From a virus (Duplodnaviria; Heunggongvirae; Uroviricota; Caudoviricetes), in IMG/VR virus record IMGVR_UViG_2740892439_000006, positions 1 to 53,794 of that record: 53,794 nucleotides of DNA; one strand, 5' to 3'. This document shows positions 9,854 to 35,808 of the stretch, one piece after another. Each line of letters starts with the position of its first letter. Positions within the stretch are counted from its first letter, which is position 1. The translations under genes and the position numbers were made by a program. Below the pieces are notes generated by a model. It was not told where the DNA came from. It made no database searches and worked only from the letters and a program-made list of their open reading frames with translations.

Positions 9854-9883
9854 TGTTAGAAAACTAAAATCAATGTTCTAACG
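9854..9883. promoter_or_regulatory. palindromic operator-like site A (TGTTAGA-N16-TCTAACg)
   Basis: Inverted 7-mers with 16-bp spacer in promoter region of the leftward operon starting at 9811. Confidence 0.5.
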
Positions 9884-9909
9884 TGATTTTGAGTGCGTAA
9901 ATGATTTGA

Positions 9910-10602
9910 TCAGACTTTAAGCTGCCCTCCCTTCACCTGCATTAGCGTCAGATTTCCGCAAAAAACCGCGCCCGTGTCTATGTAGTGCTGATTCCAGTAT
10001 GCTTTTGGTCTTCGTACCGGTGTGTGCCCAAAGATAAAGCGATCTGCGCCTGTGATTTCTCCACCAATGCCATCTATCGAATCACCGACGCGACTGCGCG
10101 ACCAGACAACATCAAAAAGCGACACATCCTTACCGAACTGGTACTCTCCACCTGGATAGTCGGCATGGGCTATAACGATAGTTTCATGCCCGGTGTTCAA
10201 CTCAATGATATATGGCAGACGCTTTACCAGCTCCACCAGCGCCCAGGCTAATATTTCCTGATCAGTGTCCAGCATGAAGAACCATTGTCCGCCATTCATT
10301 AGCCAGTTATTCACGTTGCCATCAGGACTTAACGCATCAAGCATCAACCGCTCATGGTTCCCCATTACTGCCCTGAACCAGGGCATCTGCAATAGTTCCA
10401 GACATTCGACATTTTCAGTACCGCGATCGATAAGGTCGCCAACAGATATCAGTAAATCCTGCGCCGGGTCAAAATCCACACGATGGAGTTCGGACATCAG
10501 TCTGGTGTAGCAACCATGCAGATCACCAACAACCCATATGTTTCTGTAGCCAGAACCATCAATACGGCTATATAAATTCACTTCATGCATAGCCTGGATC
10601 AT
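9910..10602 (-). CDS. Ser/Thr protein phosphatase, lambda NinI type
   Basis: [30 protein letters not shown] motifs; start placed at MIQAMHEV directly after upstream stop. Confidence 0.85.
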
Positions 10603-10910
10603 GCGGCAACCTTCTCCCGCAGCCAGATACAAACTGGACCATCTTCAGTGTCATGAATAGAGCCAACAAACCAGCCTTCACCCTCTGGTCGCTCCGGTTC
10701 CCAGGCGGCAATATCGGGACCAGCTGCGTCCAGATCAAAATCATCTTCATCCATACTGCGAATAGTCCACTGAAGATTATTTTCCTTCATCCAGGCGTCA
10801 AATTCCTCAGTGGAAATATATTCACGGCCTGCGCAAAACTTTTCATACTCCGGATGTGTCCAGCAGCCATATTCATCACGTTCTACCGGCATTTCTTTAA
10901 TTGTGCTCAC
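10599..10910 (-). CDS. hypothetical protein
   Basis: 103 aa ORF, stop/start overlap with neighbours. Confidence 0.4.
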
Positions 10911-11131
10911 TCTTCATCCTCCAAGTCGGCAACGGCCTCCATCACATCAGAACCGCGAATAAACTCAAAAGCACGGCAAGCCATTTCAAACACCTGTTGT
11001 TCTTGCGGATGCGGTGACTCCCAATACTTAAAACCAGGTCGATGCTCGTAACCCATCATGGAATAAAAATCGCCAGCAAGTTCAATCGCGGCATCAACAA
11101 GTTCGCTATTTGTCATCGTCTGTTCTGTCAT
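10907..11131 (-). CDS. hypothetical protein
   Basis: 74 aa ORF, coupled. Confidence 0.4.
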   Translation of the reverse strand: MTEQTMTNSELVDAAIELAGDFYSMMGYEHRPGFKYWESPHPQEQQVFEMACRAFEFIRGSDVMEAVADLEDEE

Positions 11132-11403
11132 TTGGTTTTCTCCTGTCTGAACATCACTATCATCAGGTCGCCTTTTGTCGCTATCCTCGCTGTTGTGCCT
11201 GGTTCAATGCTGCCAAGTTCAAATGCGTCATAGAACGCTTCTAATGCCTTCTGGCGTAGTTCCTGTTTGCGCCGTTTTTTCCACTGTTTCAGGAAAATGG
11301 AACCCAGCCATCGCCATGTACGGGACATGATGTAAAGCCAACCGAGAAGTGCCAGACCAGAATTTAGGAGCGTATCGATCGTTATTGTCGTGTCGATATT
11401 CAC
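11128..11403 (-). CDS. hypothetical membrane protein
   Basis: 91 aa, hydrophobic N-terminal segment. Confidence 0.4.
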   Translation of the reverse strand: MNIDTTITIDTLLNSGLALLGWLYIMSRTWRWLGSIFLKQWKKRRKQELRQKALEAFYDAFELGSIEPGTTARIATKGDLMIVMFRQEKTK

Positions 11404-12095
11404 TTGCTGCTTCCTCTTCGAAGCTCATCGGCAAAGTCAGTTGCATGTTCACCGAGTAGTTTCCAGTTATCGCGTATATCAGATGCAAGCGACTGTTCGG
11501 ATTTTGAGTTACATTTCTGTGCAAACATCTCCAATCCCTGCGCCCGGACTTCAGCCAGGAAAGCATCAGTGGTTGGCGTTTCAGGTATCTGTCTCCTCAT
11601 CCGTTCTATTGCATGATTGAACCCGAAGTCTTCCGCGAGAGATACGTCATCCATATTGTCATTGTCATCCTCAATATCCCGTGATTCTGGAATTGCAGAC
11701 TTTATTCCCGCATTCTCCGCCGCCAGCGCCGCGCAATTACCCTCCAGCTCTGCAATGCGCTGTTTTGCGGCATCAAGTTCAATCGATAATTTTTCCAACT
11801 GCTCTTTATGCTTCTTGTATTCCTGATATGCGTGCCAAGACTGACCTTTGCGCACACTATCAGTAATATCAGTAATCTGTTCTGGTGTTAGCGTGGTCAG
11901 TGGCTGTGCTGGAAAAATCATCACTTGCCCGGCATCCCAATCAAAACCCACCTGAATTGACTGAACCTCAACTGATGGTGTTGAACCGATGCGACCAGGC
12001 GAATGAACAACGATCGTTACATCCATATCGCGACGATGGCTGTGGTTGTTGGACAAAATACGATTCACCAACTCAGAAAATTTGGAAAATTTCAT
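11400..12095 (-). CDS. hypothetical protein with central coiled coil
   Basis: 231 aa from MKFSKFSEL; start follows upstream stop. Confidence 0.4.
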
Positions 12096-12454
12096 GCTGA
12101 TTCCCTTTGCTCTTCCTGGATAATGTTGTTGCAATCTTTCACGCACTCGTTGCAGATGAAAACGTTGTCCCCGGCAATTAACTTTTTAACGGTGTGCTGG
12201 GATTTGTTGCAGAAGCTGCAATAAAGCGTTGGACTGACTGATACGGATGGTGCGCCAGATGTCAGCCGCGCGATGTCGTTCTTGCGACGCAATATCACAC
12301 GGCTGCACTCGACCAGTATCTCCGGGGATATCTTCTCCTCCGTAGCGAGCGTTTCTAATCGTTCGAGTATGTGGAAGGCTTTTTCCTGGGTAATCCTGGG
12401 TAATTCAGCGTTACGCTCTGCCAGTTGTGCGGGCGTTAAACCTTCAGACTTCAT
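12092..12454 (-). CDS. protein with C-terminal ClpX-type zinc-binding domain
   Basis: [39 protein letters not shown] matches the ClpX N-terminal ZBD; no AAA+ module. Confidence 0.55.
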
Positions 12455-12761
12455 ACACTCTCCTTTCGAAATAAACGTACTGATTAATCATGCTCAGGGG
12501 CATTTCGAGTTTTTCCGCGATCTCACGGCGGGGAACACCACACTGATGAAGCTGCCGTGCCAGTTCTATATCGCTCTGCCGGTATTTGGCTGACGGATGA
12601 AAGTCTCCTTTCAGAATCATGCTGATCCCCAACTCCCGCGCTTTAGTCCTGACGGCATCACCGGTACGACCGATCAGCTTCCCAATACTCTCGACCGTCA
12701 TAGTTCCGGCGCACTGGCGGAGTATCATGATTTCTGCCCTTCCCCATCCCCGCCAGCTCAC
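12444..12761 (-). CDS. hypothetical HTH-like protein
   Basis: 105 aa ORF. Confidence 0.4.
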
Positions 12762-13369
12762 GCAGAACTCCTTCTAACCAAAAGAACGCCATCTTCAGAA
12801 ACAACGTTGCAGGACTTCAGGTAATTCATTGCCTCTTTCGGTAATGGATTCTTTGGATCGGCGTTTGCCAGGGATTTCGATAACCTCATGATAAATTTGA
12901 TCATTACCTTCTGGCGGAGCTTGTGCTCATGAGATAAAGAAAGGTAATAGGAAATGGTATGGGCTAAACGCTCACGAAGCTGTTCTGTGCCGTGATATAC
13001 AGCAGCGATATCACGCAGTGCATTGACCAGTTCCCGGTAAATATGCGGAGCAACCTGGCATTCAATGTTGGTTGGTGACTCATAAATTACAGTCAGCCCC
13101 AGCTTTTCAGCCAGCGCGTGCTCTGCACGAGCACCAACCGAATCTTCCCATCGATTGAGCAAATAGATCGCATCAGCAGAACGCACCATTGCCAGGCAAA
13201 TATCCATGTATTCACTCTGACAAAGGCCACCAGGTAACACAGCTGGATTCAGAACGATATGCCCTTCAGCCATCAACTCGCTCGCTTTCGCATTAAACGC
13301 CGCACGGTTGTAATCTGGATAACCAGTCATCGGCCCCGCGATGTAAATTTTCAAAACACGTTTCACCAT
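12758..13369 (-). CDS. DUF4406-like (nucleoside 2-deoxyribosyltransferase-like) domain protein
   Basis: N-terminal KIYIAGPMTGYPDYN motif; start at MVKRV coupled to upstream small ORF (TGATG). Confidence 0.45.
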   Translation of the reverse strand: MVKRVLKIYIAGPMTGYPDYNRAAFNAKASELMAEGHIVLNPAVLPGGLCQSEYMDICLAMVRSADAIYLLNRWEDSVGARAEHALAEKLGLTVIYESPTNIECQVAPHIYRELVNALRDIAAVYHGTEQLRERLAHTISYYLSLSHEHKLRQKVMIKFIMRLSKSLANADPKNPLPKEAMNYLKSCNVVSEDGVLLVRRSSA

Positions 13370-13524
13370 CAAAATTTCCCCAGAATCGTGACGCAAAACA
13401 TAAGCACTGCGAAAAGCTCAATACCAAGCTCAAGTAGCGCCAACGCCCCGAAAAACAACACATAGAACAGGCCAATCTCATTCACAGATGGCTGGTGGAT
13501 CGCACTTAAAGCTATAAGCATCAT
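13369..13524 (-). CDS. small membrane protein, first gene of leftward operon
   Basis: 51 aa hydrophobic; RBS tggaggac-ATG. Confidence 0.5.
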   Translation of the reverse strand: MMLIALSAIHQPSVNEIGLFYVLFFGALALLELGIELFAVLMFCVTILGKF

Positions 13525-13563
13525 GTCCTCCAAACATTTATCAGTGATGATATTAATGTTTTA

Positions 13564-13593
13564 TGTTAGAAAATCAATTTTGAATATCTAACT
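13564..13593. promoter_or_regulatory. palindromic operator-like site B (TGTTAGA-N16-TCTAACt)
   Basis: In the divergent promoter region between the leftward operon and ref. Confidence 0.5.
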
Positions 13594-13641
13594 GTTTTGA
13601 TCAATCATAGAAAAATCGTTGAAAAGTAAGAGACTGCCATC

Positions 13642-14220
13642 ATGCAGAAACAGAGTTATTGGGAGAAACAGAGACAAAAAGCCATGCAAAAATTGGCTGA
13701 CCCGGCCTGGCGAGAGGAACAAAGGGCAAAGCGCCTTCAACAAGCTCAACGCCAGCAGCAGCGAGCGAGAGAAAAAGCCGCATCGCCTGAATATCGGCAA
13801 AAGAAAATTGAAAAAGCAAAGCAATATGAACAGCGGAGAAAAGATAAAGCTGTATCCGCTCCGCCCAAAAAAACACGCACGTCACGCGGCCTGAAAGGCA
13901 GATCACTCACAGCCGATGAACGCCGGATACAGACCGCTATCGGTACTCTCCCCTGCATTGCCTGCCATATTCACGGGCAACATAGCCCAGTGGTATCCCT
14001 GCACCATATCTTCGGGAGAACGGCAGAGAACGCGCATAAATATGTCCTCCCTTTGTGTAAATGGCACCACCAATACGCAGCGCCAGCCGAGGTCCGAGAA
14101 CAATATCCCTGGCTGGTCCCTGTTCATGCTGACGGAAAAATAGGCGGAAAAGCAGATTTCATGCGGCACAATGCCGATGAAATGACGTTGTATCAGATGG
14201 CGATTGAATTGATAAATTAG
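13642..14220 (+). CDS. ref: Ref-like HNH endonuclease
   Basis: LADPAWRE, SRGLKGR, LPCIACHIHG, SLHHI, LPLCKWHHQ, APAEVREQYPWLVPVHADG match P1 Ref as recalled. Confidence 0.8.
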   Translation: MQKQSYWEKQRQKAMQKLADPAWREEQRAKRLQQAQRQQQRAREKAASPEYRQKKIEKAKQYEQRRKDKAVSAPPKKTRTSRGLKGRSLTADERRIQTAIGTLPCIACHIHGQHSPVVSLHHIFGRTAENAHKYVLPLCKWHHQYAAPAEVREQYPWLVPVHADGKIGGKADFMRHNADEMTLYQMAIELIN

Positions 14221-14233
14221 TTTTCTAACATTT
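14211..14233. promoter_or_regulatory. operator-like half-site C
   Basis: Reverse complement reads aaaaTGTTAGAAAACTAAtt, same core as sites A and E; no matching second half. Confidence 0.3.
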
Positions 14234-14551
14234 TAAGTTGAATTGTAAATTTCTCCGATGTACATTCACTACCGATTGGCACACCGGTCAACTTTTTGAG
14301 ACAAACTGTTTAGTTTTTCGTATTATTGCCGCCGCTATACCTATGGCGGTGCAATATAGGTGGCTGAAAAGCCCCCGTTGACTCACGGTGTTCCAGCCTT
14401 TATTGCGCCGCCACCAGACCGTGGAACAGTCGATGGCGGCTCCGAAAGCAAGGAGTCACTACACTATGAACAGCTACTGTCTTTTCCCATCACTCGTTGT
14501 CCGCCACTCACGCGATAATCTGCATTCTTTACTCGCGCAGGGGGTGTCAAA

Positions 14552-14719
14552 ATGACCGTTCGCTACCTCAACTTTCAAATCCAGAACATCACTGGCGGTT
14601 GCTATGACTGGTTTGTCACTCTCGGAAAAGAAGTGATCACCGGGAAGCTGGATGAAGTGAAAGCTAAAGCAATGGCCTACGCCTGCAAGCAAGCCCGGAA
14701 GAAATCCGCCAAAGCATAA
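14552..14719 (+). CDS. small hypothetical protein
   Basis: 55 aa; RBS aggggg upstream; preferred over antisense track ORFs on composition only. Confidence 0.3.
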   Translation: MTVRYLNFQIQNITGGCYDWFVTLGKEVITGKLDEVKAKAMAYACKQARKKSAKA

Positions 14720-14821
14720 AATACTGACTGTTGCGCCCTGGCATTATCGTGGGGTATATTTCTACGGCACCTTAGAAAAACGGGTGCCGGGATTGAGACC
14801 CCGGATAATGCAAAAGGCGAC

Positions 14822-14848
14822 ACAGACGCCGAAAGCGTCTTTTTTTGT
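14822..14848 (+). terminator. rho-independent terminator
   Basis: stem agacgc/gcgtct, loop cgaaa, followed by T7. Confidence 0.6.
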
Positions 14849-14895
14849 GTCATGCCATCGCACAGCCATACGTAGCGTATAGCTCCAAGATCAAT

Positions 14896-14971
14896 GGTAG
14901 TGCTGGCTGGGCTGCCGAAAGGCAGGCCGGTTCCCTTTTGCGCCGGTAGTCTCAACCCAGCCAGTGCTACC
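14896..14971 (+). ncRNA. candidate structured RNA (c4-like antisense RNA position)
   Basis: 16-bp stem ggtagtgctggctggg/cccagccagtgctacc enclosing hairpin ctgcc-gaaa-ggcag, about 60 bp upstream of small ORF plus antirepressor. Confidence 0.3.
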
Positions 14972-15031
14972 GCCATTGAGATTGAGACCTCACGCGGTAG
15001 CTCCTTAAATTAGCAAAAGGAGGCTGCCAAT

Positions 15032-15247
15032 ATGGCTACTATCCCTACCCCAACTCATTCTGAATTTATCTGGCGTTTCTATTCCTGCCAAAAGCACCTG
15101 TATATCTGCGTCATGGCTGCTACCGAATCAGAGGCGCGCTCATACCTTCCCGAAGAACCCTGCATTTTTGCTGCTCGCTTCACTCTTGATGCGATGGAGA
15201 TCCTCAATTACTGGAATCTGCCGATGAACTGCGTGGAGGTGCACTGA
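15032..15247 (+). CDS. small protein in Icd-like position
   Basis: 71 aa; RBS aaaggagg; stop overlaps ATG of antirepressor-like gene. Confidence 0.45.
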   Translation: MATIPTPTHSEFIWRFYSCQKHLYICVMAATESEARSYLPEEPCIFAARFTLDAMEILNYWNLPMNCVEVH

Positions 15248-16173
15248 TGAATCTGTCCATCTCTCAAAAAGCGACAATGACAAGTATTGAGATCGCGGAG
15301 CTGGTGGGTAAGCGTCCTGACAACGTTAAACGCACCATTGAACACCTAGCGGAACGGGGCGTAATAACTTTTCCTCAAATTGAGGAAAAGCCCACCGCAG
15401 GCCGCCCGGCGAGCTATTACGTCTTCGAAGGCGAACAAGGCAAGCGCGATAGTATTATCGTCGTCGCGCAGCTCTCTCCCGAATTCACCGCCCGGCTGGT
15501 GGACCGCTGGCGCGAACTGGAGAGTGCCAAAGTACAGTTAAAATCAAAAGCCGAAATCCTAGCTGAAATGGCGCAAATGCATCTTGAGCATGAACGCCGG
15601 ATCAACGCCGTAAATGCCCAGGTAGCCGAGGTATCAGCACAAGTATCGATGGTCGCTGAAACACTCGAGCAAATAAAGAAAGGCAATATTCCGGAAGGCT
15701 ACATTGGCTACCGCCAGCTGGCGGCGAAATGTGGCCTGACTGAAGCCAAATGCCGAAACCTGGTCAACGCTTACCGGATTCCCACCGATACGCATGAGTT
15801 TTTAACTCCCGATGGTTTGCTTGCGCGACGCTCCATTGTGGCCCTGGCCCCCTTCCGGAAAGCCTTTAAGCAGGTGATGTCGGAGGCAGAACCACGCAAT
15901 AAACGCTGGTATCATCCAAAGATGGGGATGTTTCAGGCAATCCACCATCCTGTGCCTGAAAGTCCAAAGGCAAACCTGTCGTTGCATACCGCCAGAGAGA
16001 GGATTAAAACAGGCTATGCAATCGTATGCCGTCGAGCATCCTGGCCTGAAGGTGTATGGGTGTGGCCCGAAGGTGGATCACGAAAGCACTGGCGCACTAT
16101 CCGGGATGGGAAAATCCATGCGATTGATTTAGCTCCAGAGGATGTTGTTGCTACGGACTGGATTGTTAGTTAA
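15247..16173 (+). CDS. Rha-family antirepressor-like protein with DUF2829-like C-terminus
   Basis: N-terminal SIEIAELVGKRPDNVKRTIEHL (Rha-like); C-terminal YAIVCRRASW...DLAPEDVVATDWIV resembles the DUF2829 region of ORF 972..1649. Confidence 0.55.
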   Translation: MNLSISQKATMTSIEIAELVGKRPDNVKRTIEHLAERGVITFPQIEEKPTAGRPASYYVFEGEQGKRDSIIVVAQLSPEFTARLVDRWRELESAKVQLKSKAEILAEMAQMHLEHERRINAVNAQVAEVSAQVSMVAETLEQIKKGNIPEGYIGYRQLAAKCGLTEAKCRNLVNAYRIPTDTHEFLTPDGLLARRSIVALAPFRKAFKQVMSEAEPRNKRWYHPKMGMFQAIHHPVPESPKANLSLHTARERIKTGYAIVCRRASWPEGVWVWPEGGSRKHWRTIRDGKIHAIDLAPEDVVATDWIVS

Positions 16174-16181
16174 TTACTGTT

Positions 16182-16206
16182 GCCCCGGCCTGTCCGGGGC
16201 TTTAAC
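16182..16206 (+). terminator. weak terminator-like hairpin
   Basis: gccccgg/ccggggc stem followed by ttt. Confidence 0.35.
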
Positions 16207-16232
16207 TACTAAATAACCGGATTCTCCGCACG

Positions 16233-16517
16233 ATGAAGAAAATAGATTTCACTTACTCTGCTGCCACAATCCAGCGACGTTTCAGTCTCATAAGGGAAGT
16301 GGAACTATCAAAAAACTACTATCAAATTCTACTGGATGAAGAGTTTTCACTGATGGTTATAGCAGAAAAATTGGCTATGCCGAATGACCGGCACAAGGTC
16401 ATAGCCAGCCTGGATCTGGTGACAAACAGATACTGGGAATACGAGGAACTACTTGAAGTTGGCTTGATACGCGAGATGATAGAACAGGCTGTTCCCCTCC
16501 ACTTACAGCAACCATAA
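16233..16517 (+). CDS. hypothetical protein
   Basis: 94 aa ORF at start of AT-rich island. Confidence 0.4.
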   Translation: MKKIDFTYSAATIQRRFSLIREVELSKNYYQILLDEEFSLMVIAEKLAMPNDRHKVIASLDLVTNRYWEYEELLEVGLIREMIEQAVPLHLQQP

Positions 16518-16653
16518 TTGAAAGATCTTAACGATAGTCTGCCACGAATAGTTACTTCCACTGCCTAAAGTTATTTAATTGCATTACAAAGTGTAAATTA
16601 GTAACATTAGAATCTCACACAGCACTATAACTATATGTTTTTTATGTAAAAGG

Positions 16654-17013
16654 ATGATAATCGTGGCTACTAAAATTAAACTTGAAAACCCTCAAACTGG
16701 CGAATCAATCACCGGTTTTTATGGTTTTTCCTGGACTACATTCTTGTTTGGTGCTTTTCCAGCTTTGTTCAGGAAAGACTTTATAACTTTTATTGGGGTA
16801 TTTGTAGTTATGCTGATACTGGCATTCCTCACAGCCGGAATTGGCCCGTGGATTGCCTCATTTATCTGGGCGTTCATGTATAATAAATATTTCACCGTAA
16901 ATAAGATAAAACAAGGCTTCATTTTTGCTGGTTCTCACACAGAAAATGAGTTGGCTGCTAGCAAGCTAGGATTGTCATTAAATCAAAACAACTGCAAAAC
17001 TATTACCGAGTAA
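16654..17013 (+). CDS. hypothetical inner-membrane protein
   Basis: 119 aa with two hydrophobic segments. Confidence 0.4.
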   Translation: MIIVATKIKLENPQTGESITGFYGFSWTTFLFGAFPALFRKDFITFIGVFVVMLILAFLTAGIGPWIASFIWAFMYNKYFTVNKIKQGFIFAGSHTENELAASKLGLSLNQNNCKTITE

Positions 17014-17052
17014 AACCAAAAAGCAGGCTTAATAGTAAGCCTGCTATGTCAA

Positions 17053-17886: not shown

Positions 17887-18175
17887 TTCATTAACTCCAT
17901 ACCTTACCATCTTAGCCGCGAGCGCGGTCCCTAAAACCATTAACTTCACTGCACCGTCCTTCATGCAATCAAAATGACTTTTATGTTATAAAAATAATCA
18001 GCCAAATCAACATGATTTAGGCCAAATTTCTGTCAATAAATAAAATCCACAAAAAGTGGTTGACACTATTTTGGAAATCACAAACTGCACATAATCCATC
18101 GCGCTAACGGCTCCCGTTGAAGGTTCTTTTGACGATTAACTTTCAGCCGAAGCGCGGTAGGGAGTCATAACGCCA

Positions 18176-18206
18176 AAGCAGGCCGCCATGTGCGGCCTTT
18201 TTTTTG
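18176..18206 (+). terminator. rho-independent terminator
   Basis: stem ggccgc/gcggcc followed by T8. Confidence 0.6.
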
Positions 18207-18232
18207 TATCCGTCATCCGTGGAGGAAGGACA

Positions 18233-18886: not shown

Positions 18887-19214
18887 TCACATTAGTAGCT
18901 TTGTTAACTCCCTCAATACCAGGTAGAAGAGTAACAAAAATATTAACGCGAGTATTTGAGTGGTCAATGAAGCGTTCATAAACAGATCAATTAGCATTAA
19001 TAATTCGAAGATAACATCCATGTCATTCACTCCGTTTAATTTTTAATCTAATGCCAGCAAATGAAGCTGGCCCCCGCATAAAGATTAATGAAAGTCACTT
19101 GTCACCAGTGAGGGGATTTATGAACCACATCCCCCTGAACTGGTGGCCTGTCTGTTTCTCGCATTTCACACCCTGCATACAGTTTCCCCTAAGTTATGAC
19201 TGAGAGGCTTTGTT

Positions 19215-20730: not shown

Positions 20731-20775
20731 ACCACACATAGCCTAGTAGTTTATGCTGGGCTTTCATTTTTTTGA
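20717..20775. terminator. bidirectional terminator between convergent genes
   Basis: stem agcataaac/gtttatgct flanked by A-run and T-run. Confidence 0.5.
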
Positions 20776-21492: not shown

Positions 21493-21513
21493 AGCTTATC
21501 CTGATTACTTTTA

Positions 21514-21714: not shown

Positions 21715-21726
21715 TAATTACAAAGG

Positions 21727-21758: not shown

Positions 21759-21770
21759 TGTTTTACTATA

Positions 21771-22482: not shown

Positions 22483-22632
22483 TAGTCATTTGATCCTCCG
22501 TGATGATTACCGAATGCCATAACTATAGCGCACCGTTGCACTGTGCGCAAGTGCATTTTATGAATTCCCCCTCCTTCATCCAAAATCACAATCTCCAGAA
22601 AATCTTCCTTTCGATACCTGACAGATCGACCT

Positions 22633-24200: not shown

Positions 24201-24203
24201 TAA

Positions 24204-25184: not shown

Positions 25185-25834
25185 AGCGTAGAGCGCAAAT
25201 TGTTGGAACTGTGCACCCGGCAGGGCTTATGCGTGCTCAAGTCCGTGTTTTACCTGACTGGAATGGCGTTCCTGATGACGATCTACCCTGGGCGGAATAC
25301 CTGTTACCCATCGGAAACGCTTTTGTACCCACAGTCAAAGGTGACCTGGTCTGGGTAGAGTTTCCTTATTTAGATGTTAACGGTCGAATAGACACCAGAC
25401 GCCCAATGATAGTTGGTGCCGCTCAGGATGCACCGGGAGGAATTCCAAACGTTGCACCAGAAGCATCTGGCAAAGGCAACGGCTGGACGCCGCCGGAAGT
25501 AGATGGAGCACCTCCCCGCCCCCAAATCTCAGCAACGAAAGACTTCGTTATTCACCGCAACAATATTCTTGAAGTACGAACTGCTGGTGGCGGCTATGAA
25601 ATTGCCAATACGGCAGCAGGCTCAAGGATTGGCATGAATGAGTCCGGGCAGATATATATCATTGGTCCGGCTGATGTAATCGTGAATGCAGGAGGGAGTG
25701 TTAACGTCAAATCAGCCAACAACATCAATGTTAAAGGGGAAAATATTGCTGTCACCGCTAACGGAGACATAGCTTTCAAGGCAGGAGGAACCTTTCAGGC
25801 CACTGCTAGCAACTTCGATTTCAAGAAAGGATAG
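25181..25834 (+). CDS. baseplate spike / gpV-like protein
   Basis: N-terminal OB-like region (GTVHPAG..AQVRV...GDLVWVEFP) and C-terminal Gly/Asn-rich beta-helix-like repeats. Confidence 0.5.
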   Translation: MKRRAQIVGTVHPAGLMRAQVRVLPDWNGVPDDDLPWAEYLLPIGNAFVPTVKGDLVWVEFPYLDVNGRIDTRRPMIVGAAQDAPGGIPNVAPEASGKGNGWTPPEVDGAPPRPQISATKDFVIHRNNILEVRTAGGGYEIANTAAGSRIGMNESGQIYIIGPADVIVNAGGSVNVKSANNINVKGENIAVTANGDIAFKAGGTFQATASNFDFKKG

Positions 25835-25843
25835 AAAATGCAC

Positions 25844-25887
25844 CCATTTGTGTTAGATAATTAATATGTATTTTCTAACACAAATGG
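25844..25887. promoter_or_regulatory. palindromic operator-like site D (perfect 14-bp arms, TGTTAGA-N16-TCTAACA core)
   Basis: ccatttgtgttaga ... tctaacacaaatgg immediately upstream of rdgC start. Confidence 0.55.
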
Positions 25888-25893
25888 TGAGAC

Positions 25894-26799
25894 ATGAGAT
25901 CAGTCGCTTTCAAAAATATCTTCATCTATCGTCTTTCACGCGAAGTTAGCTGGGATACTGCAGAAGTAAATGCAGCCCTTAGCAAGTTTGTGTTTACCCC
26001 ATGCGGTTCTCAGGATATGGCTAAAGCTGGTTGGACCCCCGTTCTTGGCGACAACCTCACCCATGAATACCAAGGTTTTCTTCTGATACAGCATAAACGA
26101 GAGGAAAAAATCCTACCCTCTCAAGTGCTCAAAGAAGAGTTACAGAAAAAAATCCTGACACTTGAAGAAGAGCAAGACAGAAAGCTGAAGAAGACTGAAA
26201 AAGATTCGCTGAAGGATGAAGTGCTTCACTCTCTGCTTCCTCGTGCTTTCACGAGAAAATCAGTCGCTAAAATCCTGATAGACCGAAGCAATCATCTGGT
26301 TTTTGTCGAGGCCAGCAGTGCTAAAAAAGCAGAGGATCAGCTGGCTTTGTTACGGAAATCGCTTGGCAGCTTGCCCGTTGTCCCCTTCTCTCCGAAAGAC
26401 CCATTAGAACTGACCATCACTGGCTGGATTAAAAATGGCTTCCCGAACGGTTTCCGTGCCGGTGAGGAAGCGACCTTAAAAGCATTGCTTGATGATGGCG
26501 GCGCGGTCCGCTGCAAAAAAGTGGACCTGCTATCCGACGAGATCATGAGTCATATAGAAGCTGGTAAGGTTGCAACCACAGTTGCGGTTAACTGGCAAGA
26601 CCGTGCATTTTTCAGACTGAATGACGATATGAGTATCAAGGCTTTGTCGTTCAGCGACGAATTGTACGACCAGAACGACGATATTGATCGAGAGGATGTT
26701 GCGCAACGATTTGACGCTGACTTTATCCTGTTTACTGCTGAATTATCCGCGATGTTCACTTCGCTGGTGGAGGCCGTTGGTGGTGAAGCAGAACGTTAA
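25894..26799 (+). CDS. rdgC: recombination-associated protein RdgC homolog
   Basis: [76 protein letters not shown] match E. coli RdgC as recalled. Confidence 0.85.
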
Positions 26800-26812
26800 C
26801 AATAGACCTCTG

Positions 26813-28361: not shown

Positions 28362-28393
28362 AAAACGCCGCAGTAGCGGCGTTTACTTTTTTA
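28362..28393. terminator. bidirectional rho-independent terminator between dam and glnS
   Basis: stem cgccgc/gcggcg, loop agta, A5 upstream and T-run downstream. Confidence 0.7.
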
Positions 28394-28409
28394 TGTGGCG
28401 AAATACCTA

Positions 28410-30071
28410 TTAACCTAACTTCGCCCAGGTATCACGCAGCCCAACGGTGCGGTTAAATACCGGTTTTTCCGCCGTGGAATGGCGGCTGTCGAGGCAGAAA
28501 TAACCTTCACGCTCAAACTGGAATGCTTTACCCGCTACCGCGTCTTTCAGCGACGGTTCAGCAAAACCCTGTTTGATCACCAGCGATTCCGGGTTAATCA
28601 CCGACAGGAAATCATCCGCAGCACCTGGGTTCGGCACGCTGAACAGACGATCGTACAGGCGGATTTCAACCGGCAGCGCATGTGCCGCGCTCACCCAGTG
28701 AATAACGCCTTTCACTTTACGACCATCTGCCGGATCTTTGCTTAAGGTGTCGGCGTCATAAGTACAGAAGATGGTGGTGATATTGCCTTCGGCATCTTTC
28801 TCCACGCGTTCAGCCTTAATGACGTAAGCATTACGCAGACGCACTTCTTTACCCAGCACCAGACGTTTGTACTGCTTGTTAGCTTCTTCGCGGAAATCGG
28901 CGCGGTCGATCCAAATCTCACCGCTAAACGGCACCTGACGGCTACCCATTTCCGGTTTGTTTGGATGGTTCGGCATGGTGACCATTTCGCCTTCGCCCTG
29001 GTAGTTTTCGATAACCAGTTTCACCGGATCGATAACCGCCATTGCGCGCGGGGCATTTTCGTTGAGATCTTCACGGATGCAGGATTCCAGCGACGCCATT
29101 TCAATGGTGTTGTCCTGCTTGGTCACGCCGATGCGTTTGCAGAACTCACGAATAGAAGCCGCAGTGTAACCACGACGACGCAGACCGGAAATGGTCGGCA
29201 TACGCGGGTCATCCCAGCCTTCAACGTGCTTGTCGGTCACCAGCAGGTTCAGCTTACGCTTGGACATCACAGTGTATTCCAGATTCAGGCGCGAGAATTC
29301 GTACTGGCGCGGGTGAACAGGAATGGTGATGTTGTCCAGTACCCAGTCATACAGACGACGGTTGTCCTGGAACTCAAGCGTACACAGAGAGTGCGTAATA
29401 CCTTCCAGCGCATCGCTGATGCAGTGGGTAAAGTCGTACATCGGGTAGATGCACCACTTGTTACCAGTCTGGTGGTGTTCAGCAAATTTAATGCGGTACA
29501 GCACCGGATCGCGCATTACGATAAATGGCGACGCCATGTCGATTTTCGCACGCAGGCAGGCTTTACCTTCTTCAAAACCACCGGCACGCATTTTTTCGAA
29601 CAGCGCCAGGTTCTCTTCAACGCTGCGGTCGCGGTACGGGCTGTTTTTACCCGGCTGCGTCAGGGTGCCACGATATTCGCGGATCTGTTCCGGCGTCAGT
29701 TCATCAACGTACGCCAGGCCTTTATTGATCAGTTCAACAGCATAGGCATGGAGTTTGTCAAAATAATCGGAGGAGTAACGGATGTTGCCAGACCAGTGAA
29801 AACCTAACCATTCAACGTCGTTTTTAATCGACTCGACGTACTCGATATCTTCTTTTACCGGGTTAGTGTCGTCGAAACGCAGGTTGCACTGGCCTTTATA
29901 GTCCTGGGCGATCCCGAAGTTCAGGCAGATAGATTTCGCATGACCAATATGCAGATAGCCATTCGGTTCCGGCGGGAAACGGGTATGTACTGTGGTGTGC
30001 TTACCACTGGCCAGATCTTCATCGATGATCTGACGAATAAAGTTAGTCGGGCGGGCTTCTGCCTCACTCAT
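28410..30071 (-). CDS. glnS: glutaminyl-tRNA synthetase
   Basis: 553 aa; N-terminus [24 protein letters not shown] and HIGH-type motif region match E. coli GlnS as recalled; extreme C-terminus reads ...DTWAKLG. Confidence 0.95.
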
Positions 30072-30260
30072 TGTGGATTCCTCAAAGCGTAAACAACGTA
30101 TAACAGCGTATGATCTTATAAGCCGAATAGGCTGACAACCACTAGTTGATTAGAAATTGCTTTCTATCGTTATTTCAATAATGAGCTTTTTCATGAAGCC
30201 CACTTTTGCGCATAAGTAAATTAATGACAAATGGTACACAATTGGAACCAAAAAGGATGT

Positions 30261-30298
30261 AAAGGTGCACCAAATTAGTGGTGTATTGGTGCACCTTT
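30261..30298. promoter_or_regulatory. 12-bp perfect inverted repeat between glnS upstream region and partition operon
   Basis: aaaggtgcacca-N14-tggtgcaccttt; no adjacent T-run, so operator rather than clean terminator. Confidence 0.4.
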
Positions 30299-30339
30299 GG
30301 TTCAAGACTTTTTAAGTTCTAAAACCAACCTGAAAGACT

Positions 30340-30627
30340 TTATTTTGCTTCCTCAGACTCCGCTAACATGAGGATAGCATGGCGGATCATATTCAATTTG
30401 CTGCGATTATGCTTTTTACTTAACGCATCAAGTACTTGGTACTCGTATTCATTGAAACCAACACGAATAGATTTAAAATCACGTGGAGCGTCCTTATCGA
30501 GCACTTTGTTGTCTTCTGGTTGCTCACCCGGCACCAAATCAGCCTTACTGGCAAAATCCTCAATTCGGCGTTCAAGATCGGGGTCTTTTACTTCGGGGGC
30601 TTTTACCGATTTACGAGGCTTAATCAC
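30340..30627 (-). CDS. partition RHH protein (ParG-like)
   Basis: 95 aa; downstream of and overlapping small ParA; C-terminal MIRHAILMLAESEE ribbon-helix-helix-like. Confidence 0.5.
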   Translation of the reverse strand: MIKPRKSVKAPEVKDPDLERRIEDFASKADLVPGEQPEDNKVLDKDAPRDFKSIRVGFNEYEYQVLDALSKKHNRSKLNMIRHAILMLAESEEAK

Positions 30628-31261
30628 TTAATAACTCCTTAACCAACATCTGGATTTCACCTTTAGCTTTCCCGTTGTCCATCTCAACAACGCCCTTCCC
30701 TTCAGCCATGCAATCGCGGTAAACCTTACGATCACGAATGATGGTTTTCAGCAACTTCAGTTGCGGATATTCAGCCAGGTACTCTTTGGCCTCATTGGTT
30801 TCATTCACAACCGGATTGGATGGGGCCATTGTTAAGACTGCGAACGCCTTAATGCTAGGATTAGGCATCAGGTCCAAAGCCTCTTCAAACACTTCAACAA
30901 AGTGTGCCAGCGTGTCTAAATCTGGTTGAGATGGTCTGAATGGGACCAACACAATATCTGCAGCGGTTATGCCTGTACGCATCTCTTTGCTATCGCGCCC
31001 GGCTGTATCAACAACTACAAATTCATAACGCTTATCCAGATCGAGAAGTGTTTCTCGAATATTACCAAACTTCTGGACACAATGAATTACAGGAGAAACC
31101 TCTGCCGTGTTACGGTCAGCTGCCCAGCGGGCAGCTGTTCCTTGCTTGTCTGCATCTAGTAACACTACATCCTTATTTGCGCGGGCAAGCTCCGCACAGA
31201 TGTTTACGCTTGTGGTTGATTTTCCACAGCCACCTTTTTGGCTGACTACCAATATAATCAT
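30620..31261 (-). CDS. parA: small ParA-type partition ATPase (type Ib)
   Basis: Deviant Walker A VVSQKGGCGKST; start at MIILVV with RBS gagg. Confidence 0.7.
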   Translation of the reverse strand: MIILVVSQKGGCGKSTTSVNICAELARANKDVVLLDADKQGTAARWAADRNTAEVSPVIHCVQKFGNIRETLLDLDKRYEFVVVDTAGRDSKEMRTGITAADIVLVPFRPSQPDLDTLAHFVEVFEEALDLMPNPSIKAFAVLTMAPSNPVVNETNEAKEYLAEYPQLKLLKTIIRDRKVYRDCMAEGKGVVEMDNGKAKGEIQMLVKELLSD

Positions 31262-31504
31262 ATCCGTTCCTCGGTGTGATTTTGGTATCAAAACGGTTCC
31301 AGATAAGAGCCTTTTTGATGCGGGACAGGCTCTATAATGGAGTCATTAATGTTTGGCAAAGTATAACATCAATCAGACCAAATACACCTTATATTGCATC
31401 CTATTTAACACGAAATCAGCCCAAAATTGGAACCAGATACAAAATAACCCCATAACAGCACCTAAGTGGTACCAAACAAACACTAATTAGACACCATTAA
31501 GGCA

Positions 31505-31535
31505 TAAAAAAGGCTGCAATTTGCAGCCTTAAACC
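31505..31535 (-). terminator. rho-independent terminator after parR
   Basis: stem aggctgca/tgcagcct with A-run on plus strand (T-run on minus). Confidence 0.5.
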
Positions 31536-31548
31536 AGCACATCTTCTG

Positions 31549-31893
31549 TCAATCAGGTAGAGAGTCAGCTAGATTGCGCGCCGACGCGCTTTTGGCTACA
31601 AATTGCTCCTTCACTGGCTCAATGGAGGCAGGGCGCTCCTCAACCGCAGCTGGTAGTTCCAGGAAGGATGCCAGCATTTTTCGGATCAGCTCCGGGTTAT
31701 TGTCTTCGGTCAGCAGGGAAGCCAGTAATCCTGGAAGCCTGCTATCGACTTCTCCCAGCGCAAGCCCTGCCAACAATGCAGTTCTTGCCATATCGCTATG
31801 TTTTTTTATCTTCTCGCTCGCCGCCTTTTCATTGGCATAAGCCTCTGGGCGAAGATAAATCATCACTTTCTTACGTTCCTGAGACATGGACAT
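31549..31893 (-). CDS. parR: ParR-like centromere-binding protein
   Basis: 114 aa immediately downstream of parM; RTALLAGLAL resembles R1 ParR as recalled. Confidence 0.6.
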   Translation of the reverse strand: MSMSQERKKVMIYLRPEAYANEKAASEKIKKHSDMARTALLAGLALGEVDSRLPGLLASLLTEDNNPELIRKMLASFLELPAAVEERPASIEPVKEQFVAKSASARNLADSLPD

Positions 31894-31899
31894 ACCTCG

Positions 31900-32879
31900 T
31901 TAACCGATTGCTTTCAGGCCATGAACAAGAGCAAGTTGCGGGTCATCCGCCACGAAGAAACGGTCATCACGAATATTAACTTGCACGCGAATTGCATCTG
32001 CCACCAGCGGTGCGCCACCACCGATCACCATGACATGCGTATATCCTTTAAAGTCGCCAATCACATCAAGAACGCGGGTACGCAGACGGTCAATGCTTGC
32101 GGCAATGGCCTTTTTCACATCACCAATCGCTGATGGGTCATTGATATTGTCGTTCAGATAATCTTCATCGTGGCGGTTAATAATGAGCTGATCCACATTG
32201 TAATTTGACGTTTCGGTATTGGCCCTTGCAAGTGCTTGCCTTACTTCCCTGGTGACCAGTGATACACCAAGATTCGAATCGCCAAAAACACGGGAAACTG
32301 CCGTCATTTGTCCAGCGACCATTGAAACATCAAGGTAGTTCCACCCAAATCGACGATAAGAACAGAGTGGGCAGGGTTCAGATTGTCGCACAGGCTAATT
32401 CCCGCCGGGATAGACTCCGGGCGTACCGTAACTTTCTTAATAGTGAATACATTGCCTTTATTCAGCGTGACGGGGCGCATAAGACTGGCTTTCTTGCGCT
32501 CGATGTTATCGAGATTGTATTGCGCGTCGTCGTCGTAAAACTCTGCCAGAGGCAGCGTGACCACAATTTCTACTTCCTGCGGCTCAATACCGCTTGTCAG
32601 CAGGGCATGGTGAACAGCCAGGACGTTAAGCGGGCTGTATTGCCATTCCACATTATTCGTCGGCAGAACATCTGGCGATATCAAGTCGTATGAATACTTT
32701 TCGTCGTCAATGACATAGTTAAACGGCTTGCCCGCACCAAATGTTGCTGACCATCCGCGCTTAAAGCTGTTAGGGCTGATGTGAGTGCGAGTTTCCCCGT
32801 CGTGCTCCCACAGCATTTTGATATTGGTTGAACCATCATCGATAAAAATGCGCATCTTCTTGCTCCACTTCTGAGACAC
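31900..32879 (-). pseudogene. parM: ParM (StbA) actin-like segregation ATPase, frame broken after DLGGTTL
   Basis: Two ORFs (32304..32879 and 31900..32391) each match R1 ParM halves ([11 protein letters not shown]; GYTHVMVIGGGA); frame restored by ttgatg->ttggatg. Confidence 0.75.
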
Positions 32880-33060
32880 ATTTGAGAATCAAAATGTAAT
32901 TTTAAAAGAGAAGCACCCAAAAATCCACACCAAACGAGATAAAAAAGAGCGCTTGTTGAGTTTATTTTGAGAATATCTTAATCACCCACTGAATGATGGT
33001 CTGATGGTGAGATTTATTTGAGAATGAATTGAGAATACAAAAATATTCCGAAATTTAACT
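32880..33060. repeat. parC-like centromere region with direct TTGAGAAT repeats
   Basis: At least five ttgagaat copies upstream of parM. Confidence 0.45.
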
Positions 33061-33121
33061 CTCCGTTTGAATGACGAAATAACAAAGTGATGACAATAGG
33101 AGGATAACCAGGAGGTGAAGA

Positions 33122-33406
33122 ATGAGCGCAATAGCCACCAGCGACACCCTTTGTTCTGGTCACGGAGGATTTCCGCCGCGACTGGTAGCTGAAACCGTTC
33201 CCTGGTTCACCGTTAACGGTAAGCCAGTTGTTGTAGATGGTGCCATGTTTCCCAGTCACACTGACGGTAACAGTGCACATCCAGGGGCAGCTGTATCGAC
33301 GCGAGTATGGTTTTCGATAGGTGGAAAGGGAGTTGTCTGTGTAGGCGATCCGCTTTCTTGTGGTTCTGTTATCGCCAACGGCGAGGATATTTTTCAGGTT
33401 GCATAA
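33122..33406 (+). CDS. PAAR-like spike-tip protein (tentative)
   Basis: 94 aa, Gly-rich, GKGVVCVGDPLSCGSVIANGED motif; RBS aggagg. Confidence 0.4.
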   Translation: MSAIATSDTLCSGHGGFPPRLVAETVPWFTVNGKPVVVDGAMFPSHTDGNSAHPGAAVSTRVWFSIGGKGVVCVGDPLSCGSVIANGEDIFQVA

Positions 33407-34212
33407 TGCTTGATTCAATAGGTGAAGTTAAAGCCTTCAAAATTCTGTCAGATGCCGGTATCTCTACACCAGAATCTATAACCATAAGCCGGGCAGCTTC
33501 TGTAAAAGCCTCATCGCTCGCCAGCGCCATACAGGGAATAGTTCACGCCGATAAAACCTATCCTGATTCTGTTTCGGCCTGGACTACTCAATTGCTTGGC
33601 TTTTCTGAACAGCTCAATGAGGCCAGCAAAGCGTCTTCATTACTGGCTGATTCTCTTTCCCCATACACCAAGCCATCAGAGCTGTTACAGATGAAGATTG
33701 GCTGGGAATGCTACGCAAAAGGTAACGAGCTGACCCCCATACCTGCTTTCGCCCTTGTTGAGGGAATGGGGAATGTTTCCATTCCGCAATCCCTAACGGA
33801 CGCATTGACGGCGCTAAAACTTGATGCTCTGAAAACCGCCATGAACGCCATTAACGCAAAAATTGAAGCTGCCGGAAGTGCTGGTGGTGGTGAAAGCGAT
33901 GGTGGACAGGGTGGTGCTGGGGGCGCTCAGGCTCCAGTCATTACTCAGGATGAAATTGATGCTTTACGGGAAGCAGTGACAGCCGCCGAAGTTTTACTCT
34001 CCGAAATTAACTCAGCAAGTGAGGGTGTCGTAGCCCTTACAGGTCGCATTAAAACGTCAACCACTCAGGCAACCAAAGGTTTAGAGAACGCTGTCGCCAT
34101 CACGTTAACTGGTTCTCTACTGGATAATGCAGTAATGAGTCCGGCAATCAGTTTAATCATGCCACAAGGCGTTATCGATGCGCTCCAAAAGAACACCAAA
34201 AAGGAACCATAG
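33406..34212 (+). CDS. hypothetical virion-associated protein
   Basis: 268 aa from MLDSIGEV, TAATG overlap with upstream stop; Gly-rich linker. Confidence 0.4.
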   Translation: MLDSIGEVKAFKILSDAGISTPESITISRAASVKASSLASAIQGIVHADKTYPDSVSAWTTQLLGFSEQLNEASKASSLLADSLSPYTKPSELLQMKIGWECYAKGNELTPIPAFALVEGMGNVSIPQSLTDALTALKLDALKTAMNAINAKIEAAGSAGGGESDGGQGGAGGAQAPVITQDEIDALREAVTAAEVLLSEINSASEGVVALTGRIKTSTTQATKGLENAVAITLTGSLLDNAVMSPAISLIMPQGVIDALQKNTKKEP

Positions 34213-34267
34213 AAACACTACTTAGGCACACAATAGGATGTAAATTGGTACATATTTAACACCAAAA

Positions 34268-34741
34268 ATGAACCTGAAGAGGATGGTTTTGAAAAAGATA
34301 ATTTTGATTGTAATTGCGCTTTTAGCCATTTCTGGAATTTACCGAACAACGACGGCAGTTATCGAACACATCAGGTATGTCCGATCGCTTGAAGACTCAA
34401 AATCACAACTGGAAAGCACGAACAACACGCTTTCTACCGCATTACAGTTAAGTGAGAACGCTCGCTCAGCCATGCTGACCGAAAACGAAAGAATTAAAGC
34501 ACTGGAAAAGGAGTACCAGCGCAAAACAGCAGAACTGAATGCCAACCTAATCAAACAACGAGAGGAAAGCCAGAATGAAATCACTCGCCTTGAAAATGCG
34601 TTACGCCGTGCTGGGATTAACGATGTGCGTGTGCCTGATGACGTTATCAGGATGCAGCGGGAACGGGCAAAAGCCATCAACCAGCGTGCCAGTGAAAATT
34701 ACCGTAGAAGCCACCAGCAAGCCGCAGGCAAATCTGATTGA
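34268..34741 (+). CDS. Rz-like inner-membrane spanin
   Basis: N-terminal TM helix then long coiled coil; embedded out-of-frame lipoprotein ORF. Confidence 0.55.
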   Translation: MNLKRMVLKKIILIVIALLAISGIYRTTTAVIEHIRYVRSLEDSKSQLESTNNTLSTALQLSENARSAMLTENERIKALEKEYQRKTAELNANLIKQREESQNEITRLENALRRAGINDVRVPDDVIRMQRERAKAINQRASENYRRSHQQAAGKSD

Positions 34742-34907
34742 TTACTCCCCTTGTTTAGTGCCAGAGGACACGCCAGTGCTGTTAAACAAGTATCCGACAT
34801 ACGCTGAACAGTTATTCAGCACGATCGACGAATGCAACCAACGAAACGCACTGAATAACCAAAGAAACAGGGAGATTTGGGAAGGGAAGGGGGATCAAGG
34901 CTCCTGA
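34575..34907 (+). CDS. Rz1-like outer-membrane lipoprotein spanin
   Basis: Lipobox LSGC after signal peptide; overlaps Rz-like gene in another frame. Confidence 0.5.
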   Translation: MKSLALKMRYAVLGLTMCVCLMTLSGCSGNGQKPSTSVPVKITVEATSKPQANLIDYSPCLVPEDTPVLLNKYPTYAEQLFSTIDECNQRNALNNQRNREIWEGKGDQGS

Positions 34908-35353
34908 AGCCAGATGTCCTGGCTGTCAGCTTCTTCGAAACCGTGACAGACGTTAAAGTCACTCAAGCGATACTGACGCTGACGGCCTCTATTTCGCTCA
35001 TGCCAATGCATATATCCACCAGCAAATGCCAGCGGACAATCACTATAGTCTATGTAACCAATACCATTCCCCAAACGTGCTTCGCGCGCACCGGCTTTCC
35101 AGGACAGTAGAAAAGAGTCACGATCCGCCAGCATAACAACAAAATCGTCCGGATCTCCGATACAGTGAAGAATACCTGCCTTACATAACTGCTTGAGCGC
35201 TTTGGACTGGCTCAGGATGTCTTCTCCGTAATACTGAAAACAATCATCAACAACAGCGGGATAGCCTGCCGGGGGATTCAGGCTGGTTGGTATAGCTGAC
35301 GCGATCGACAGCATTAAGCGATATTGTGTTTTTGATGGGTTAACGTGGCTCAT
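34895..35353 (-). CDS. hypothetical protein
   Basis: 152 aa ORF. Confidence 0.4.
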   Translation of the reverse strand: MSHVNPSKTQYRLMLSIASAIPTSLNPPAGYPAVVDDCFQYYGEDILSQSKALKQLCKAGILHCIGDPDDFVVMLADRDSFLLSWKAGAREARLGNGIGYIDYSDCPLAFAGGYMHWHERNRGRQRQYRLSDFNVCHGFEEADSQDIWLQEP

Positions 35354-35369
35354 TTTGTCCCTTGTTTAC

Positions 35370-35762
35370 TCATTGTCGCCATGCGTTTTTTAACTCAGGA
35401 ATATCTGCCATTTCAATTAACTTGCGAAGTCCAGCACTGACTTTCCCATTACCAACCATAGCAAGCCAATCTCTTACTGCTTTCGGCATGTAGAGCGTTG
35501 CTGTTACCGGCTCTTCAACCCTGGCAGGACATCCGCATACAGGCCATTTAATTGATTCCATAACTTCGGAGGCTGGGGTGAGGGCGGGGACATTGAGTAT
35601 ATCTCTACCAGAAAACTGGATAACGATCCGTTCAGCTAGCGAGAGTATCTCACTTTCGGCAAGAATTGATGCCAACTGCGCCTCAACAAGAAAGCGACTT
35701 GTTGTGTTCAGAGAGTGGCTCTTAGCGCCATTTTTATACGAAACAAAGATTCGATACGCCAT
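35370..35762 (-). CDS. hypothetical protein
   Basis: 130 aa ORF. Confidence 0.4.
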   Translation of the reverse strand: MAYRIFVSYKNGAKSHSLNTTSRFLVEAQLASILAESEILSLAERIVIQFSGRDILNVPALTPASEVMESIKWPVCGCPARVEEPVTATLYMPKAVRDWLAMVGNGKVSAGLRKLIEMADIPELKNAWRQ

Positions 35763-35777
35763 AACTCTAATGATTTG

Positions 35778-35808
35778 TGTTAGAAAACTAAAATTAAATC
35801 ACATAACA
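35778..35808. promoter_or_regulatory. operator-like site E (good left half, degenerate right half)
   Basis: gTGTTAGAAAACTAAAAT shares 17-bp core with site A; sits between divergent genes upstream of structural operon. Confidence 0.35.

Follow-up and report, generated by a model that had tools for sequence, protein, structure and literature searches.

The DNA analysed here (positions 1 to 53,794 of the virus record IMGVR_UViG_2740892439_000006, referred to as the window at its full length) carries five loci with a shared sequence motif which are, with high probability, operators of a C1-type repressor encoded by a D6-like, P1-related plasmid prophage. The system is a heteroimmune version of the known C1 operator network of phage P1 rather than a new kind of control, and it leaves the general picture of P1-type prophage regulation unchanged. 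The element in the window belongs to the P1 group and shares ~96-98% identity with Escherichia phage D6, onto which it maps in reverse (D6 89538-36418) with a few accessory segments replaced. Its nearest complete relative in the plasmid collection is the Escherichia coli plasmid pZ1323HEC0010-2, which is 99.4% identical over the variable segment and contains the first 60 bases of the window exactly. The genomes used for comparison were D6, a Shigella dysenteriae plasmid (NZ_CP026818), P1 (AF234172), Leclercia pE1_003 and Citrobacter NZ_CP099368.

A first-pass annotation, made from the sequence of the window, had described a 30-bp palindrome with 7-bp arms and a 16-bp AT-rich spacer, together with related single sites, in front of several operons. 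The corresponding pattern, TGTTAGA-N16-TCTAACA with at most two mismatches, matches three times in the window (9854, 13564 and 25851) against an expectation of 0.12, and none of 100 shuffled windows reached three matches; the 14-mer TGTTAGAAAACTAA is found exactly at 9854 (+), 14217 (-) and 35778 (+). A weight matrix trained on seven D6 sites only, all of them outside the region of D6 that is homologous to the window, was then scanned over the window. The five loci supplied the six best hits, with scores of 17-27 bits, as compared with a best score of 18.6 bits and a mean of maxima of 13.4 bits in the shuffled windows. The motif can thus be read in every place where it had been reported, and both matrix and shuffle controls put it far above chance. 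Equal density in coding DNA, named beforehand as the outcome that would speak against an operator function, was not observed: the window is ~90% coding, and every one of the five loci falls either between genes or across the stop codon of ref (P ~1e-5). The bare heptamer TGTTAGA occurs at its expected frequency (6 copies versus 5.99 expected, all six within the five loci), as it would if the matches were fortuitous similarities in AT-rich intergenic DNA. That explanation, however, has to contend with the excess of the full palindrome pattern, with six matrix hits of 17-27 bits where only a single shuffle maximum reached 18.6 bits, with 15 hits in each of D6 and the S. dysenteriae plasmid and none in two related genomes of comparable AT content, and with the alignment of the window, D6 and the S. 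dysenteriae plasmid, in which the operator blocks are kept where the flanks have diverged, most clearly at the ref divergent region and at hrdC. The controls effectively refute it, and its probability is negligible.

When the window sites are aligned with the D6 copies, the information content is confined to 17-19 consecutive positions, TG-TGTTAGAAAAYTAAWWT, which show no internal symmetry, and the single sites at 14214-14232 (-) and 35776-35794 (+) keep this whole 17-19 bp unit. The conserved element is therefore an asymmetric 17-19 bp site and not a 7-N16-7 palindrome, and what had been taken for an AT-rich spacer is, for this reason, the inner and still conserved part of two overlapping sites. 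Each of the three palindromes consists of two inverted units with a 4-bp overlap, spanning 30 bp if the units are counted as 17-mers and 34 bp if counted as 19-mers. The palindrome originally proposed thus stands as a pattern well above expectation but not as the recognition unit, and two of its three right halves are imperfect. These are the right halves of the first two palindromes (TCTAACG and TCTAACT), which score 8.2 and 4.4 bits against 26.0 and 22.2 bits for their left partners, so that only the hrdC locus has two good halves in this element. Both halves score well (17.6-24.7 bits) at each of the three paired sites of the S. dysenteriae plasmid, so the bivalent layout is conserved, with partial decay in the D6 branch.

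The first predicted operator (9852-9885) is bivalent and lies between ppp (9910-10632, -) and the leftward operon of DUF968 and a pdcB-like gene (start 9811, -). Its strong half, TATGTTAGAAAACTAAAAT, occupies 9852-9870 (+) and scores 26.0 bits, and its weak half, CACGTTAGAACATTGATTT, occupies 9885-9867 (-) at 8.2 bits. Both D6 and the S. dysenteriae plasmid retain this operator, the latter with two strong halves, while its distal flank diverges. The second predicted operator (13562-13595) is located in the divergent region between the leftward operon running from DUF4406 to ppp and the ref gene (13642-14220, +), and combines a strong half at 13562-13580 (+) of 22.2 bits with a degenerate one at 13595-13577 (-) of 4.4 bits; in the S. 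dysenteriae orthologue the 34-bp palindrome is nearly perfect (22.3 and 22.3 bits) despite diverged flanks. The third, a predicted monovalent operator with the sequence AATGTTAGAAAACTAATTT (14214-14232, -, 25.4 bits), extends over the ref stop codon and precedes the c4-icd-ant (immI) operon. Downstream of it, in the immI region, lies the gene for the C4 antisense RNA (14890-14977, +; Rfam RF01695, 76 bits, E 3.8e-13), with icd and ant further downstream. The segment directly 5' of the C4 RNA and ahead of icd-ant (14767-14845, +) also matches an isrK-like RNA in Rfam (59 bits).

The fourth locus (25849-25882), a fully bivalent predicted operator with halves at 25849-25867 (+, 21.9 bits) and 25882-25864 (-, 17.1 bits), stands directly upstream of the genes for hrdC (rdgC), a methyltransferase and dmt, the first ATG being at 25894. 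The perfect 14-bp arms earlier noted here, at 25844-25857 and 25874-25887, are correct, and dyad symmetry reaches 25841-25889. The fifth, the predicted monovalent operator TGTGTTAGAAAACTAAAAT at 35776-35794 (+), has the top score in the window (27.4 bits). It is placed between the divergent genes orf52 (ATG at 35762, -) and major capsid (35920, +), at a distance of 14 bp from the ATG of orf52 and with the capsid gene starting 126 bp downstream. D6 and S. dysenteriae both retain it, and the equivalent intergenic region of pE1_003 contains a site of the Leclercia type described below. An additional match, TATGTTATAAAAATAATCA at 17982-18000 (+) in the simB/mat intergenic region, scored 12.9 bits, which is within the range of the shuffles, and was not counted as it is doubtful.

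The distribution of the motif over the complete relatives points to C1. With a reverse matrix built only from the six strong window sites and a cut-off of at least 13 bits for D6, D6 and the S. dysenteriae plasmid each yielded 15 sites. The D6 sites include one at 197, 12 bp upstream of the c1 ATG, and others upstream of lpa (4630) and of repL (22465), upstream of a second icd-ant copy (21278), at immI (75978), around pmgS and pmgM (8928, 9084 and 10333) and after dre, upstream of the dut-isaA operon (89946); the remainder are homologues of the window sites, including those of ref and hrdC-dmt. The second icd-ant copy is itself a feature of D6 located elsewhere than the immI copy. In an unbiased search of D6 for dispersed k-mers, TTAGAAAATTA was the top motif after the recombination sequence Chi.

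The cognate repressor gene had been predicted to lie outside the window, and this is supported: tblastn found no C1 homologue in the window, and in pZ1323HEC0010-2 the c1 gene is located ~1.85 kb past the position of the window's left end and encodes a protein 100% identical to D6 C1. In D6 itself, the c1 homologue (227-1264) and lpa (4161-4553) are both outside the part homologous to the window. The pZ1323HEC0010-2 gene has TATGTTAGAAAACTAAATC 12 bp upstream of its ATG, and more sites follow after the recombinase gene and upstream of lpa. D6 C1 is a full-length but distant homologue of P1 C1 (21% identity over 240 aa, E 2e-8), matches the NCBIfam model phage_rep_C1 at E 9e-6 and 25 bits, far under the 500-bit equivalog cutoff, and yielded no domain in Pfam and no solved homologue in searches of the PDB. 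D6-type C1 homologues are present in 149 plasmid records. A weaker inverted copy of the motif (reverse complement ATTTTAGAAAACCAACC) is found at D6 ~113-135, ~75 bp upstream of the c1-proximal operator. Relatives with a C1 of 68-70% identity share this copy, which may serve as an auxiliary operator for transcription in the direction of rox/dre.

The earlier proposal that one repressor acts through dispersed operators, in the manner of P1 C1, is supported by the positions of the sites and by the way in which the motif tracks the type of C1. P1 C1 binds ~22 dispersed operators whose 17-bp consensus, ATTGCTCTAATAAATTT, is asymmetric, and has RepL and Lpa under its control (PMC8546580). The P1 record (AF234172) annotates C1 operators as Oref, Omat, Ossb, Oc4, OrepL, Orlf, Odmt, Obanab, O26, Oppp, OpmgRa/b, OpmgT, Olpa and Oc1a-e, and marks Obanab and Oc1ab as bivalent, that is, as overlapping inverted pairs of 17-mers. 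Within the window, the site at 13562 corresponds to Oref, the site at 14214 to Omat (which likewise lies over the ref stop codon) and by function also to Oc4, and the site at 25849 to Odmt, upstream of uhr-hrdC-dmt; Oc1, Olpa, OrepL, Oc4, OpmgR and Ossb-isaA have counterparts in the rest of D6. The operators of the P1 ImmC regulon (Op/O sites) and those of the D6 type are thus alike in being asymmetric, ~17 bp long and dispersed in many copies at promoters, in being in some instances bivalent with the specific part outward and the AT-rich part central, and in their places (c1, lpa, repL, c4-icd-ant, ref, the ref stop codon, hrdC-dmt and pmgR/S), and their repressors are distant full-length homologues.

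The two systems differ in sequence and in several details. As had been suspected, the motif is not the P1 operator: cross-scans gave no hits of the P1 matrix in the window and none of the window matrix in P1, so that the P1 consensus is not matched and the sites define a different specificity class, not P1 immunity. The bivalent sites measure 30 bp as 17-mers with a 4-bp overlap, versus 28 bp and a 6-bp overlap in P1; the ref and hrdC-dmt sites are bivalent here and monovalent in P1; C1 has 345 aa in D6 and 283 aa in P1; and, unlike in P1, coi, imcA and imcB are not annotated between c1 and the recombinase gene in D6. Lambdoid CI/Cro operators are comparable in that repressor sites over early promoters keep a prophage silent, but they are clustered at two loci, symmetric and bound by dimers, whereas the sites described here are dispersed genome-wide and individually asymmetric.

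The relationship between motif class and repressor lineage was assessed by scanning five genomes with three matrices and counting hits of at least 14 bits, a threshold at which shuffled genomes give ~0.4-1.1 hits. The D6-type matrix produced 6 hits in the window, 15 in D6, 15 in the S. dysenteriae plasmid (C1 70% identical to that of D6), none in P1 and none in Leclercia pE1_003 (C1 30% identical). The P1 matrix gave 21 hits in P1 and none in the window, D6, the S. dysenteriae plasmid or pE1_003, and the Leclercia-type matrix gave 12 in pE1_003, one in P1 and none in the other three. Leclercia pE1_003 carries a dispersed motif of its own, ~GCCTTAGAATYWCTAT, with copies preceding c1, cre, rdgC and repL, a further one after cre, two in the ref divergent region, and others at pmgM and pmgS and in the capsid divergent region; Citrobacter NZ_CP099368, with a similar C1 (~30% identical to D6 C1), has the same motif class at the same positions. 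This motif is asymmetric (~GCCTTAGAATTNNTRT, or GCCTTAGAATT...) and occupies positions orthologous to those of the D6-type sites; it looks like a third operator class. The positional network is therefore conserved across three repressor lineages, and its recognition sequence has changed. C1 is favoured as the binder because an operator is found at c1's own promoter in all three lineages.

Several observations nevertheless weigh against assigning the sites to C1-mediated repression. Co-occurrence of motif and C1 type does not by itself single out C1 from other proteins that diverge along the same lineages; the D6 motif has no convincing alignment with the P1 operator, the TTAGA pentamer alone being shared, with ambiguous orientation and register; the right halves of two of the three palindromes in this element are weak; the target of the 35776 site is ambiguous; and a sigma-70 scan at the sites detected no strong consensus promoter, the hexamers identified by eye matching at 8 of 12 positions and remaining below threshold. 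The first of these points would equally suit another regulator encoded by the element, such as an Xre or helix-turn-helix (HTH) protein, an antitoxin or an early regulator of the D6 lineage that has so far gone unrecognised, and D6 does annotate a 'transcriptional regulator' (orf72) and an HTH antitoxin in the region homologous to the window. Such a regulator is nonetheless an improbable binder: the sites at the c1 promoter, lpa, repL and immI are canonical targets of P1 C1, the toxin-antitoxin/orf72 locus (~21.5-22.6 kb) has no site nearby, and the positional pattern recurs with a different motif in Leclercia and Citrobacter, in which C1 is 30% identical.

We infer from the sequence that C1 binds these sites, that its binding represses and that the promoter hexamers described below are used. 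The repressor would be supplied by c1, which lies outside the window beside the dre/rox recombination module. In a lysogen, C1 would occupy sites that overlap or abut weak sigma-70 promoters, a mode of promoter occlusion suggested by the positions of the sites, and this occupancy would silence ref, the immI antirepressor operon, hrdC-dmt and the two accessory operons and, elsewhere on the element, lpa, repL and c1 itself; upon loss of C1 activity, all targets would be de-repressed together. At hrdC, a promoter-like pair TAGAAA-18-GATAAT (25832-25861) overlaps the left half of the operator and is conserved in the S. dysenteriae orthologue (spacer 17/18), and the region where transcription would be expected to start lies under the right half. 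At the DUF968 promoter and in the ref/DUF4406 region, the -35-like hexamers TTGATT and TTGAAT appear to lie in the centre of the palindrome, which would place each arm in the 16-17 bp spacer that precedes a -10-like hexamer. For the 9852-9885 operator, a putative leftward promoter with -35 TTGATT and -10 TATTTT was recognised by eye and brackets the strong half. This arm-in-spacer geometry matches that of the annotated P1 Oref within P2ref.

The site at 35776-35794 bears on a further explanation, in which the sites are late promoters or binding sites of Lpa comparable to the P1 -22 box. Its location upstream of the capsid gene would fit such a role, as would some D6 sites flanking pmgS and pmgM, two genes with a putative morphogenetic annotation. 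The P1 late promoters, however, have the form AACAAGTGACTT-N4-TAnAAT, with a 9-bp -22 box (AAGTGACTT-like), and are unlike the motif, and the late operons of this element are preceded by another box, AAATCACAAA-N5-TAnnnT. This box is found on the + strand at 18075-18084 (mat), 22583-22592 (gene 7), 35851-35860 (gene 23), 44482-44491 (pmgB) and 51855-51864 (R), in each case with a -10-like hexamer 5 nt on, and with at most one mismatch it matches 16 times in the window against 7.9 expected, 15 of the 16 matches being on the + strand. It is likely the D6-type late (Lpa) promoter element, differing from the AACAAGTGACTT of P1. There is no TGTTAGA site before the gene 26, gene 7, gene 22, pmgB or R operons, gene 23 alone having one nearby, and the sites at c1, lpa, repL and immI belong to early or immunity genes. 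A late-promoter function of the motif was rejected as very unlikely, a scan of the window for P1 late promoters having returned one P1-like -22 box (~19092). That match, AAGTCACTT within GAAAGTCACTTGTCACC (19092-19100, between mat and gene 26), is the lone close counterpart of the P1 -22 palindrome, and a good -10 towards gene 26 is absent. The description of the 35778 site as upstream of the structural operon is accurate as to position, but the site is probably not what drives that operon, which has its own late-promoter-like element, AAATCACAAA-N5-TATTGT, upstream of the capsid gene (35851-35875, +). The leftward orf52-53 genes are probably the more likely target of a C1 operator at this place.

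Instead of binding a protein, the palindromes could act through nucleic-acid structure, as RNA hairpins, terminators or cruciforms. The hrdC palindrome, which comes directly after the tail/baseplate operon, folds at -21.3 kcal/mol (z -6.2), and its S. dysenteriae orthologue keeps a hairpin with 14-bp arms (-18.5 kcal/mol, z -4.9) with a different flank sequence. On the other hand, single asymmetric copies that lack a partner arm make up two of the five loci and most of the sites in D6, the remaining two palindromes have weak folds (-7.3 and -6.1 kcal/mol, z -3.0 and -1.2), and no palindrome is followed by a T-run; the loops are AT-rich and 16 nt long, and a terminator scan found no terminator at these places. 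It is thus highly improbable that structure accounts for the sites, and a structural role would be at most an added feature of the hrdC operator. The hrdC palindrome extends several bases past the operator consensus, and its hairpin would pair part of the GGTGAG ribosome-binding site. In S. dysenteriae (NZ_CP026818 22845-22905) the 14-bp arms are formed with other flank bases, so both arms have changed together. The hrdC palindrome may have a second, RNA-level role besides that of a putative C1 operator.

A broader generalisation can be put forward only tentatively. The C1 repressors of the P1 group might share an operator plan in which a TTAGA(A) core stands between 2-4 specificity bases and an AT-rich tail, the flanks of the core setting at least three heteroimmune classes (P1, D6 and Leclercia/Citrobacter). 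The Leclercia/Citrobacter set, which is defined by sequence only, can be aligned with that of D6, both having 2-4 specificity bases followed by TTAGAA and then by an AT-rich tail, at the same positions. It differs in its flanks (GCC-TTAGAA-TT... versus TGTG-TTAGAA-AAYTAA in the D6 type), in that no palindromic pairs were seen, and in its C1, which is only ~30% identical to D6 C1. Under a shared plan, the 34-bp palindromes of the D6 class could be compact bidirectional switches, in which the AT-rich centre may carry back-to-back -35 hexamers and each arm may fill a promoter spacer, with the hrdC copy being possibly also an RNA hairpin. If this were true, the immunity groups of phage-plasmids would be readable from DNA alone.

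For the D6 type itself, the consensus and regulon described here would allow immunity groups to be assigned from sequence, and they predict that the ref, hrdC-dmt, DUF968, DUF4406 and antirepressor operons are silent in lysogens. An operator and repressor orthogonal to P1 C1 would also constitute defined parts for genetic tools. Phage-plasmids of the D6-like and P1-like kinds occur commonly in E. coli, Salmonella and Shigella, and P1-like plasmids spread antibiotic resistance (PMC8546580). Both GenBank records of D6 annotate the rox and cix sites and no operators, and full-text literature searches for the motif or for D6-type C1 operators returned nothing relevant, although an earlier description is possible. 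Neither record appears to annotate the sequence of the operator, the map of its regulon or the bivalent geometry with its 4-bp overlap and its pairs at ref, hrdC and DUF968.

Other features of the window were noted in the course of the analysis. The Chi sequence GCTGGTGG is present in 32 copies (e.g. 600, 883, 1344 ... 46130) versus 1.39 expected, the largest count in a shuffle being 5, and is also the top family of dispersed k-mers in D6. P1 is likewise rich in Chi, and Chi richness is probably a trait common to the P1 group. Five direct repeats of ~20 bp (TTGAGGGCAAATCTTACACC) at 44176-44294, spaced by 22-32 bp, adjoin the RepB-family replication gene and are presumably the iterons of the plasmid origin. 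Finally, the window contains a full-length glutaminyl-tRNA synthetase gene (28410-30071, -; D6 orf62), an unusual cargo for a prophage.

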